Shown: positions 6,001 to 9,000 of the stretch, in pieces
Position numbering within the stretch: position 1 is the first letter of the stretch
Layout: each line of letters opens with the position of its first letter
DNA from: a phage
Sequence record: OZ365185.1
Direction: 5' to 3' (one strand)
DNA: 47,066 nucleotides
Made by a program: the position numbers

Positions 6001-9000
6001 GTCCGTGATGCGTTTTTCTGAGAACCAGAATTCATACTGTACCGTCGGGTCATACACCGCCAGCACCGGTACTGCTGTTATCTGAAAATACCCCGGCGTC
6101 AGTTCAATTCTGGCCGGTGCCGCCGGTGCATTAATCCGGAATGTGGTGGTGGCAGGTTCGCCCTGCTGGCCGTAGCTGTTTATCGCCCTGACCGTCAGGG
6201 TGTATTCCCCGAGCGGCAGGCCACTGAAACGGTGCTCCGTGTCGGCAGTGATGGCGCTGGTCACCAGGCGGCTGTTTTCACCACTGCCACTGGTCAGGCG
6301 CAGACTGAAGCGCACGCCCTTCACCACCCGCGGCGTGTCCCATTTCGCCAGCGCCAGATACTGGCCGTCTGAGGCACTCACCTCCACCGTGAGGTGCTGC
6401 ACTGCCGGCGGGATGACGCTGTTCAGTGAGCCGGACATCGGCTCAAAGCGGGCCCCGTTATCCACAATGGCTTCTTTTTCCGGCACATGCTGCACCGCCG
6501 TGATGGCAAAGGTGCCGTCCGTGTTTTCCCGGATGGAAACACAGCGGAACAGGCGACGACGCAGTGACGGCAGGGAGAGTCCCCACACACCGTATGTCTC
6601 CATGCCATCAGGCAGGACGCTGACCTGTATCCGGTCAGGGGCGGGGTGTGCAGTGATGTCCACGCGCACCGGCTTACCGCTGCCGTTAATCAGGTTCACC
6701 GTCGATGTCCCTGCTTCCGGCAGTGTCACCTCACGGTCCAGCGTCAGGGTACGGCTGGCGGCATCAATGGACAGGATACGTCCGCCGGTCAGGGTCCCGG
6801 CATAGTCGTTATCACAGATTTCAATGATGTCACCGGGTGTGTGACGCAGCCCCTGAGACCCGAGCGTGAAATCCACCGTCTGCGTTTCCAGCAGTTCGGT
6901 CTTTATCACCCACAGTCCGGCACGGTGGGCCTGACCGCGGCTGGTACAGCCGAACGCATCCACCTTCAGCAGGTTGCGCCCGTAGCGCAGGATGGCGTCC
7001 GGGTCTTCCACCAGTTCCGTGGAAGTCTGCCAGCCGTTCTGCGGGTCGGTGTAATTCACCTCCACCGCCGTGTGCCGGTCCTTCAGGGCACTGAAGCTGT
7101 AGCGGAACCCCACGCCGTTATCATCCACCACCACATCGCTGTTGGTGTACGGCCACACCACATCCGACGGGCGGTCCTGAACGAACGTCAGCGTCTGGCC
7201 GTTCCATACCGGCATACAGCGCATCGCCGAGCAGAAATCCCCCAGGACATCCCACACCTTACGCTGCTGTGACAGGTACGCATTAAAGGTCATCCGCGGC
7301 TCTGTGCCCCCGAAACCATCCGGGACCGTCTGGTCACAGTACTGCCCGATGGCATACAGCGCCCACTTGTCCACGTCCGAGGCCCCCAGGCGTTTTCCCA
7401 TCCCGTAGCGCGGGTGGGTCAGCATGTCCCACAGGCACCAGGCCGGGTTATTGCTGTATGCCGGTTTCAGACTCCCGTCCCAGATACCGCTGTAGGTGCG
7501 TTTTTCCGGGTCATAGTTTGACGGCACCTGAATGATGCGGCCGCGGATATGGTAGTTCACCACCATCTGCTGGCCACCGAACTGCTCCGCATCCACCTGC
7601 AGCCCCACAATGGCCGTGTTCGGGTAGCACTGTTTCACATCGATGATTTCGGTGTATGACGACCACAGCGTTCTGTTCTGCAGCTGGTCCGTGGTACTGT
7701 CCGCCGTCACCCTGACCATCCGGATGTTAAAGGGGCGCTCAGGGAGATTATTCAGAATCACCGACGTCAGGTACTGCGAGGTGGTCTTGCCGTTAATGGT
7801 GACATCCTTCTCCGTCACCCAGTTACCGTTACGCTCAAGCTGAATCAGCAGGCGGACAGAAGAGGGATTACGGTCACCCTTTGAGGTGGTCTCCACCAGT
7901 GACTGCACCCCGAAGGTGACCCGCAGACGGTCAATGTTCGCTGACGTGATGGTGCGCGTCACCGGCTTTGCCTTCGTCACCTCCACGCCCAGTGCGGTTT
8001 CCGCCCCGGAGGACTCAAAGCCTTCCGGCGGTGTCTGCTCCTGCTCCCCGGCACGCCAGACGGCGGTCACACCGTGTATCACGGGATTACCGTCCGTGTC
8101 CGTCAGCGGGGTTTTGTTCACCAGAATACTCTGCAGTCCCTTCACCGGGCCTTCCACCGGTCCCTCACCAATGGCATCAATCACGCTCATCATCTGCGTT
8201 GACTTGAGATTGTCCTTCGCCTCACGCGGTGTGTGCCCCTTGCCGCCCCCTTTACCCACTCTGTCCCCCTCTCCTGTCTGATGTCTGAATCTGTTTATGC
8301 CCAAAAACAACAGGCACCCCGGAGGGTGCCTGTGTCATGACGGAATAAAATTTCTGAAATTCTTCACATTTTTGCAAAATCCTGGTGGCGCTTATAATTT
8401 CTCTGCGTTACCGTTTTTTTTGCTGTGACATAATAATTCCTTACAGTTAATCTTCGTATCTCTTCCCGCAGCTCCGCAACACTGCGGGATTTTTTTATTT
8501 TTATCCCCGCCCGATAACCACCACTTTCCCGTCTCCGCCCTCATCACGGGTGCTGATGTCCTGGGATATCCGTCGTGAACCAACCAGCATTTCACCGTAA
8601 GGCACCGGCATCGGGTTACCCTGGGCAATCATGTTGTCCAGTGAGGAGAAATACGTGTTCCGTTTACCATTATCTGTTGTCGTGGCAGACGGTGTTTTCG
8701 CCCTGGGGGTGAGCATCTGCGTGATACCCCCCACCATCATAGCCACCCCAAGATTACCGATGACAGCACCAATACCGGTCCAGCTGAACACATATCCCAC
8801 AACAGCCAGAACAGCACCGGCCACCACCTGAAGAACACCGCCGTTTTTTGCCCCCTCCGTCCGGGGCACCAGATGGATAACATCCCCGTTATTCAACGGT
8901 TCACATACTCTGGAATGAAGCTCCTGTTCAGATACATCCCTGCCCGCAATGCGTAACTGATACCATCCCTCATACAGTTTCTGCCTGAATCCCGGCAGCT

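Follow-up and report, generated by a model that had tools for sequence, protein, structure and literature searches.

PasB is one of five prophage small RNAs (sRNAs) found by Hfq RIL-seq (in which interacting RNAs are ligated and sequenced) in enteropathogenic Escherichia coli (EPEC) O127:H6 E2348/69 (Pearl Mizrahi et al. 2021, Sci Adv, PMC8550237), and EcOnc22, EcOnc23 and EcOnc24 are Hfq-CRAC (crosslinking and analysis of cDNA) peaks in the prophages Sp15 (Stx1), Sp14 and Sp11, respectively, of E. coli O157:H7 Sakai (Tree et al. 2014, Mol Cell, PMC4104026). Here we describe an element of the phage sequence OZ365185.1, whose whole analysed stretch of 47,066 nt is called the window below. The element lies on the plus strand at 8371–8496, in the spacer between the tail genes I and J, and is in all probability a divergent, unannotated allele of the PasB / EcOnc22-24 family of Hfq-dependent prophage sRNAs.

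PasB is encoded by prophage PP6, on the minus strand of NC_011601 from 1466343 to 1466261, and its 83-nt RNA was verified on Northern blots with the probe AATCCCGCAGTGATCGCGGAGCT (PMC8550237). Its log2 fold change in a delta-hfq strain was −6.8 and −2.4 in two conditions, and its level was higher in static overnight lysogeny broth (LB) than in DMEM (PMC8550237). The RIL-seq data of that study list 37 interactions for PasB, 30 of them with a coding sequence (CDS) or a 5′ untranslated region, with PasB as RNA2 in 99–100% of the chimeras (PMC8550237). A later study describes PasB as lying within a structural-gene operon of a phage, places its seed in a single-stranded stretch just 5′ of the terminator, and reports, from a blastn survey with a word size of 28, that it is mostly single copy and typical of strains other than enterohaemorrhagic E. 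coli (EHEC) (Zhu, Shabalina & Storz 2026, bioRxiv 10.64898/2026.05.13.724894). EcOnc22, EcOnc23 and EcOnc24 lie on the strand opposite the late genes, run at ~85 nt on Northern blots and are destabilised in delta-hfq (PMC4104026 table S2).

Homology to PasB and EcOnc22-24

In E2348/69 the plus strand carries both neighbouring genes, with the end of the tail assembly protein gene at 1466255 and the start of gpJ at 1466496. Since these coordinates bracket PasB, it occupies the same I-J spacer as the window element, in the same antisense orientation. The window and PasB spacers are collinear throughout, each with a late-strand hairpin, an upstream block, a −10 box, the RNA body and the terminator. 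Over the mapped RNA the window allele is identical to PasB at 65/84 positions and to Sakai EcOnc22 at 65/81 (77–80%), and the PasB Northern probe is complementary to the terminator region (8465–8496) of the sRNA strand. Beyond locus and orientation, the likeness to PasB takes in the upstream block, the −10 box and CUGCGUUA at +1 and, within the RNA, the U-run and seed block together with the stem and U7 tail of the terminator. The two differ in the 5′ module and the linker, the window RNA being 6–7 nt shorter, and in the −35 hexamer, which is TCACAC in PasB and near consensus in the window allele.

The longest exact word common to the window allele and PasB is 17 nt. A blastn survey with a word size of 28 should therefore miss both the window and the Sakai alleles, and this would account for the report of PasB as mostly single copy and non-EHEC; the wider family, unlike the surveyed set, is multicopy in Shiga toxin-producing E. 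coli (STEC).

Each of Sakai Sp15, Sp14 and Sp11 carries a homologous element in its I-J spacer. These elements agree with the window allele in spacer, strand, promoter layout, seed and terminator, and differ from it in having the 5′ module GAUGCCUGAAAAAU, the −10 box AATAAT and a weak −35. The EcOnc coordinates were published on NC_002695.1 and were compared here on NC_002695.2 after an inferred shift of ~+128 nt. Two points calibrate the shift: the Rfam match to AgvB lies at 1941920–1941981 in version 2, against a published peak at 1941783–1941835, and EcOnc42 lands in the stx1B-ECs_2972 spacer only once shifted. The shifted EcOnc22 peak falls at 1343–1403 of the Sakai locus L003 and so covers the body of the sRNA, from its U-run up to where the terminator begins, a stretch in which crosslinks to Hfq are to be expected. 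By position and sequence EcOnc22-24 very likely belong to the PasB family; this assignment depends on the ~+128-nt shift because the EcOnc22 probe sequence is not in the supplement. We found no literature linking EcOnc22-24 with PasB: the 2026 preprint does not mention EcOnc, EcOnc22 is otherwise named in a review table, and table S6 of the RIL-seq study gives no EHEC homologue of PasB (PMC8550237).

Two pattern scans of IMG/VR yielded 59 unique variants of the family. A covariance model, R1, built from 24 variants with all window-type alleles left out, matches the window at 8405–8496 on the plus strand over its full length (model positions 1–93; 94.9 bits, E 1.5e-15), and this interval is the predicted 92-nt primary transcript. 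All 59 variants of the alignment retain the −10 box (as TATAAT, AATAAT, GATAAT or CATAAT), CUGCGUUA where +1 is predicted, the U-run and seed block, and the stem and U-tail of the terminator. Both sequence and length vary in the −35 region, a 5′ module of 15–30 nt, the linker and the terminator loop. Conservation of −10 box, +1 region, seed and terminator amid a variable remainder is the pattern expected of an sRNA gene.

The most conserved unpaired columns of the alignment correspond to 8437–8455 (plus strand), a stretch that is also unpaired in the consensus fold. It holds an anti-Shine-Dalgarno (anti-SD) sequence, UUCCUUA (8437–8443), within the family motif A(A/U)(C/U)UCCUUA, followed by UUAAUCUUC (8447–8455), and is the probable seed. 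Just upstream lies the variable, allele-specific 5′ module, which is GCUGUGACAUAAUAA at 8422–8436 (plus strand) in the window, GCCCGAGUAACAAAAAC in PasB and GAUGCCUGAAAAAU in Sakai. The consensus structure of the family is the terminator alone; a 5′ hairpin that appears in the minimum free energy fold of the window RNA is absent from both the centroid structure and the family consensus, and was rejected as a conserved feature. Of the 24 aligned variants, 23 have the same terminator stem and one (L132) has a shorter stem; the loop varies in sequence and length.

A 167-nt stretch covering promoter and sRNA occurs at 6273 places in 1874 of 5426 complete E. coli genomes (~35%), with a median of 2 copies per genome and a maximum of 11, and in 149 phage records, mostly of Stx1a-, Stx2a- and Stx2c-converting phages. 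None of the 12 records listed for the matched E. coli loci has an annotated RNA feature. Rfam 15, searched at gathering thresholds over the whole window, gives no match at the sRNA locus, and at permissive E-values over 8200–8620 the best matches have E of ~1–9 (rseX, for one, scores 18.8 bits where its threshold is 50). Nor does Rfam match the loci of PasB and of the Sakai copies; the family is missing from Rfam.

A scan of species-representative genomes for the terminator found it on two small contigs only. One, of 460 bp, is labelled Parendozoicomonas haliclonae and the other, of 3.4 kb, Streptomyces flavalbus (the L129/L130 set); both carry the exact E. coli-type terminator and are probably E. 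coli or phage contamination, carrying no host-range information.

In four IMG/VR contigs (L072 at 10100–11000 on the minus strand, L038, L067 and L073) the I-J spacer is ~860 bp long and holds a tandem array of three cassettes detected by the model and a fourth, divergent one, each with its own upstream dyad and −10 box. The fourth cassette has a different terminator stem, CUCCCGU...ACGGGAG, followed by U6.

Promoter, terminator and surroundings

The original prediction placed a sigma-70 promoter on the plus strand at 8371–8398, an intrinsic terminator at 8465–8498 and no open reading frame (ORF) between them. A consensus scan of 7000–10000 confirms the promoter, its best plus-strand match being TTTGCA at 8371–8376, a 16-nt spacer and TATAAT at 8393–8398, at 10/12 positions; read as TTGCAA at 8372–8377, the −35 leaves a spacer of 15 nt. 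This −35 is the best within the family, and the site is the sole promoter-like one in the scanned interval, for which the same scan also reports a terminator-like site on the plus strand. The terminator stands as to stem and T-run, with CCCGCAG at 8465–8471 and CUGCGGG at 8482–8488 followed by A and by T7 at 8490–8496, but its predicted end overshoots by 2 nt, the T-run stopping at 8496. The putative intrinsic terminator and Hfq-binding module thus spans 8465–8496 on the plus strand. The absence of an ORF was also borne out: start codons within the predicted transcript open just GTG ACA TAA and TTG CTG TGA, and the plus-strand ORF at 8297–8428 begins upstream of the sRNA promoter. RNAfold of 8405–8496 gives an 8-bp terminator hairpin at −19 kcal/mol (z = −2.8 against shuffles) and leaves the rest of the RNA weakly structured.

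Taken by themselves, promoter-like sites do not exceed background, with 1 found against 1.2 expected in 3 kb. A scan of both strands of the 47-kb window found five promoters of at least 10/12, of which one, that of the 8371–8496 element, has a strong terminator 20–200 nt downstream on the same strand. By our estimate chance would give ~0.1 such pairs per window, and on its own the anatomy is therefore suggestive rather than conclusive; it is conservation and homology to experimentally detected RNAs that settle the reality of the sRNA gene.

Upstream of the −35 lies a near-invariant A+T-rich block, GTCATGACGGAATAAAATTTCTGAAATTCTTCACATT (8334–8370, plus strand), which as GACGGAATAAAATTTCTGAA..TCTTCACATTT is conserved more strongly than the RNA itself. 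It contains a dyad, TCTGA-N6-TCACA, at 8353–8368. In all counted variants (the window, PasB, Sakai and 3/4 of the L072 cassettes) TTCACA lies 24 nt from the −10 hexamer, a spacing held although the intervening −35 region diverges. In the tandem arrays the block is repeated before each cassette with both half-sites, TCTGA and TCACA, intact and the 6 nt between them altered, which is the signature of a promoter element. This element may be an UP element, or else a site for a dimeric activator, similar to that of CRP. The CRP consensus is TGTGA-N6-TCACA; assignment of the dyad to CRP itself would be speculation and was not adopted, as its centre lies near −44.5 rather than −41.5, which is not canonical class II, and its left half-site TCTGA is imperfect. 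The rise of PasB in glucose-free stationary LB is CRP-compatible but not CRP-specific.

The I-J spacer (8260–8500, 241 bp, non-coding) lies between two genes of the late (minus) strand, tail assembly gene I (8501–9040), whose stop codon is 4 nt past the sRNA U-tail, and tail tip gene J (4792–8259), with a GTG start at 8259, both as annotated by RefSeq and GenBank on identical DNA. The element is antisense to the late operon and its transcript is confined to the spacer. The spacer is 100% identical to those of Escherichia phage 1720a-02 (KF030445.1, from STEC O174:H21) and of the STEC435 prophage, and the element thus sits in a Stx-type lambdoid phage. KF030445.1 coordinates equal window coordinates + 1 at the sRNA locus, where neither that record nor RefSeq annotation of identical DNA has an RNA feature. 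The window as a whole corresponds in essence to phage 1720a-02 but is not collinear with its record at every base: between the window (47,066 nt) and KF030445.1 (47,343 nt) the offset grows from 1 nt at 8.4 kb to 181 nt at 41 kb, so an indel of ~180 nt separates them somewhere between these positions.

Mechanism and rival readings

By analogy with its homologues, the element is most likely the gene of a trans-acting, Hfq-dependent, base-pairing sRNA made in the lysogen. It would be a stand-alone gene within a ~180-bp cassette in the I-J spacer of lambdoid tail operons. Host sigma-70 RNA polymerase would initiate at about 8405, as placed by the −10 box, and terminate at 8496, giving a 92-nt product. 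The published 5′ end of PasB corresponds to window position 8421, ~16 nt downstream of the predicted +1; the window counterpart of the mapped 83-nt PasB is accordingly 8421–8496 (plus strand), and the mature RNA, trimmed or initiated at ~8421, may be ~76 nt rather than 92. Because the gene has its own promoter, pointing against the late operon, its synthesis should be independent of Q-mediated late transcription. The terminator hairpin, the U7 tail and the upstream U-run would form the Hfq-binding module, with Hfq dependence as in the homologues, and the unstructured body would expose the anti-SD/seed block and the allele-specific 5′ module. Pairing in trans with ribosome-binding regions of host or prophage mRNAs would then alter their translation or stability, as the RIL-seq partners of PasB suggest.

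An RNA of ~90 nt in the I-J spacer, opposite the surrounding genes, had been proposed in the original prediction and is supported by the homologues, detected in the same position and orientation; the lysogenic expression proposed there is likely by the same analogy, these homologues having been detected in uninduced lysogens.

Several points weigh against this interpretation. The transcripts were observed for homologues in E2348/69 and Sakai, and the RNA of the window allele and its phage is a prediction. Identity to those tested RNAs is 77–80%, and the differences fall in the part that likely sets specificity. The PasB 5′ end lies ~22 nt after the −10 box where 7 nt would be expected, which leaves unsettled whether it marks a transcription start or 5′ processing. 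The sRNA terminator stem shows no covariation among the 24 aligned variants; being practically invariant, it lends the sRNA structure no support of that kind. There is no Rfam family against which the locus could be scored, and the trans targets of all family members are candidates.

One candidate target, speculative, is the SD-AUG region of a yfdQ/DUF2303-family early gene (ORF 41040–41864, plus strand). Its site at 41027–41048 (GUGAGGACUUAUUAUGUCUCAG, with SD and AUG) pairs with sRNA positions 8423–8444 by 19 Watson-Crick pairs and 1 G.U, with 2 mismatches over 22 nt. If the 5′ module of the window allele (GUGACAUAAUAAUUCC) is a matched antisense to the yfdQ start, the sRNA would silence yfdQ-family genes in its own or co-resident prophages; we put this forward tentatively, as possible rather than probable. 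A 19/22 match to any site of the window was reached by 0/150 dinucleotide shuffles of the sRNA. Among the 59 variants the duplex energy at the yfdQ site is best for window-type alleles (−24 to −31 kcal/mol), with −15.8 kcal/mol for PasB and −9.8 kcal/mol for Sakai. The site is essentially invariant in 80 IMG/VR loci and 95–100% conserved in 46 phage records, in which RefSeq names the gene YfdQ or DUF2303 family protein, and Stx2c phages carry yfdQ together with a related sRNA allele that pairs with a 3-nt bulge.

The energies tell otherwise. By RNAduplex and cofold the yfdQ site does no better than shuffled sRNAs (best −21 to −33 kcal/mol) or other start regions; it ranks 2/286 by cofold gain, and several other phage start regions reach −17 to −21 kcal/mol. 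Prediction of targets among phage mRNAs, which had been suggested as a check on the sRNA, gave a divided answer, complementarity singling out the yfdQ start and energy-based scans not doing so. Part of the yfdQ match is moreover generic anti-SD:SD pairing, near-window-type alleles occur without the yfdQ region (Stx2_499, Stx1_14744), and PasB has no comparable match in its own prophage PP6. The best match of the Sp15 sRNA (20/22, reached by 0/60 shuffles) is to a low-complexity T/A-run site with no translation start. That site, at 15113–15134 (plus strand) of the Sakai locus L189, is in the head-gene spacer between ECs_2956 and ECs_2957, which contains back-to-back hairpins with T/A runs (CAGCCCCUGUGGGGCUG UUUUU ... 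AAAAAAAGCCCUUUCGGGC), and the match may be spurious.

Extended to the family, the same idea would make the cassette modular, with a conserved promoter and dyad, a swappable 5′ module, and a fixed seed and terminator, diversifying and duplicating among lambdoid prophages; in the window allele the module would have been tuned to or copied from the ribosome-binding site of yfdQ, a widespread early gene, and PasB and EcOnc22-24 would be alleles of one large, hitherto unrecognised family in about a third of E. coli genomes. This too is a doubtful generalisation. Were it true, tail-operon sRNAs would mediate prophage-to-prophage or self silencing of early genes. As a separate observation near this target, ~0.8 kb of the window at ~40000–40800, between a cI-like repressor gene (39141–39833, plus strand) and yfdP/yfdQ-like genes, is without any CDS in GenBank and contains no ORFs other than short, overlapping ones.

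Action in cis is unlikely to be the main role of the RNA. The sRNA would on this account pair with the late I-J mRNA, or its transcription would converge with that of the late operon, and RNase III cleavage or interference would tune J and the downstream tail genes. Its complementarity to the I-J spacer of the late polycistronic mRNA is perfect, and its location and orientation within the late operon are strictly conserved. The cassette also holds, directly before J, a conserved late-strand hairpin and U-run whose covariation is readable only on the late strand, which suggests that the spacer affects late-strand RNA. On the other hand, the sRNA ends 4 nt before the I stop codon, without overlap of the I CDS, and starts ~130 nt away from the SD sequence of J; as it overlaps no coding sequence or ribosome-binding site, a cis-antisense main role is the less likely. 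PasB is Hfq-dependent, and the cells in which it has its 37 trans partners are uninduced and contain little late mRNA. A cis-only role would leave unexplained the diversifying 5′ module beside a conserved seed, and cis and trans roles can coexist. As for the original prediction of an RNA antisense to the late operon, its location is borne out, but nothing so far favours an antisense mechanism.

The late-strand hairpin itself (8333–8310, followed by UGUUUUUGG; feature 8300–8333, minus strand, found by the consensus scan) is terminator-like and lies just upstream of the J ribosome-binding site, in the same inserted cassette. It has 10 bp and a fold of −25.9 kcal/mol (z −4.7). Family members show a single compensatory change, from C:G to U:A, and, twice independently, a U.G intermediate, all pairing on the late strand only, and for this reason the hairpin is best taken as a functional late-strand RNA element. 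It would probably act as an intrinsic terminator, halting non-antiterminated transcription ahead of J. In the tandem arrays it is present in the J-proximal cassette only. No late-strand promoter that it might serve was found at 9/12 or above by scan, and none was convincing by eye. The presence of a terminator at 8300–8333 (minus strand) within a Q-antiterminated late operon is an unexplained feature of the locus.

It is very improbable that the conserved feature is a late-strand small protein gene, with the plus-strand promoter and terminator incidental. GenBank does annotate a 50-amino-acid (aa) hypothetical protein, AGR48338.1, in KF030445 (8393–8545), at window 8392–8544 on the minus strand, overlapping the 3′ end of gene I and running antisense across the sRNA. 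In other alleles an ORF of 39–41 aa (MKINV...FRNFIPS) is open at the same place, and in Sakai-type and some PasB-type alleles it has a GGAG-like sequence 6 nt before its ATG and runs from the seed region to a stop before the late-strand hairpin. Across the family, however, the start, frame and length of the late-strand ORF are not conserved (0–72 aa): in the window allele the ATG is replaced by ACG, in the commonest PasB-type allele the ORF is cut off after 22 aa by a TAA that is the reverse complement of the −10 box, and indels that are not multiples of three are frequent. The Prokaryotic Genome Annotation Pipeline (PGAP) of RefSeq makes no late-strand ORF call on identical DNA, and AGR48338.1, with its frame and start unconserved among alleles, is therefore probably a mis-annotation. 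For the homologues, the RNA seen with strand-specific probes and by crosslinking to Hfq comes from the other strand, and the upstream block is repeated with each array cassette regardless of any ORF.

Finally, a chance juxtaposition of an AT-rich promoter-like stretch with a hairpin serving neighbouring genes would suit the background frequency of promoter-like sites, the ~0.1 chance pairs per window and the lack of terminator covariation, but it is rendered extremely improbable by the conservation of −10 box, +1 region, seed and terminator across 59 variants that diverge elsewhere, by the tandem duplication of the cassette and by the published Northern and Hfq detection of RNAs of the predicted size and strand for two homologues.

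Comparison with other known systems

An Hfq-dependent prophage sRNA is a kind of element already known, described in EPEC in 2021 and in EHEC, under another name, in 2014. What is added here is that PasB and EcOnc22-24 appear to be alleles of one family, wider and more variable than the published PasB survey suggests. This family is absent from Rfam and from RefSeq annotation, and GenBank sometimes overwrites it with a spurious ORF. Its conserved promoter-proximal dyad and its variable 5′ module offer handles on regulation and on target choice. In both STEC and EPEC the way virulence genes are regulated is shaped by Stx phages and other lambdoid prophages, and a multicopy sRNA with allele-specific seeds could be meaningful in prophage-host or prophage-prophage cross-talk.

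The window carries other RNAs, the usual RNA load of Stx-type lambdoid phages. Rfam matches above gathering thresholds, all on the minus strand, are STnc100 (142.7 bits, 28425–28637), C4 antisense RNA (82.3 bits, 37694–37781), isrK adjoining C4 (59.3 bits, 37806–37882) and three tRNA genes (30055–30303). Convergent with STnc100 is a second terminator-ended sRNA candidate, at 28338–28419 on the plus strand, with a weak match to model R1 (16.9 bits, E 0.43). Its 3′ half (CACGUUUUGUUGUU...CCCGCGUCUCCCGGCGCGGGCUUUUUUU) matches E2348C_1409.E2348C_1408.IGR, an sRNA candidate of the EPEC RIL-seq study whose authors identify it with EcOnc08/21/42 (PMC8550237).

Among systems outside the family, AgvB (RF02702), AsxR (RF02703) and the convergent sRNA pairs 3′ of PR′ morons resemble the PasB / EcOnc22-24 family in being Hfq-dependent, in belonging to lambdoid prophages of pathogenic E. 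coli, and in having a conserved 3′ part, a variable 5′ end and several paralogous copies per genome. They differ in lying downstream of PR′/stx rather than in the tail operon, in their length of 51–60 nt, in a conserved 3′ region of 42 nt and in their unrelated sequence, and sponge activity has been shown for those anti-sRNAs. Identity of the window element with AgvB or AsxR was rejected, since those RNAs lie 3′ of PR′ and the RF02702 and RF02703 models have no match at the sRNA locus; as a positive control, RF02702 finds AgvB in Sakai.

The OOP RNA of phage lambda, the textbook antisense RNA of lambdoid phages, reaches into the 3′ end of cII and works in cis by way of RNase III. Like OOP, the predicted window RNA is short, would have its own constitutive promoter and intrinsic terminator, and would be transcribed against a phage operon. 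Unlike OOP, it overlaps no CDS or ribosome-binding site, and its homologues behave as Hfq-dependent trans-acting sRNAs.

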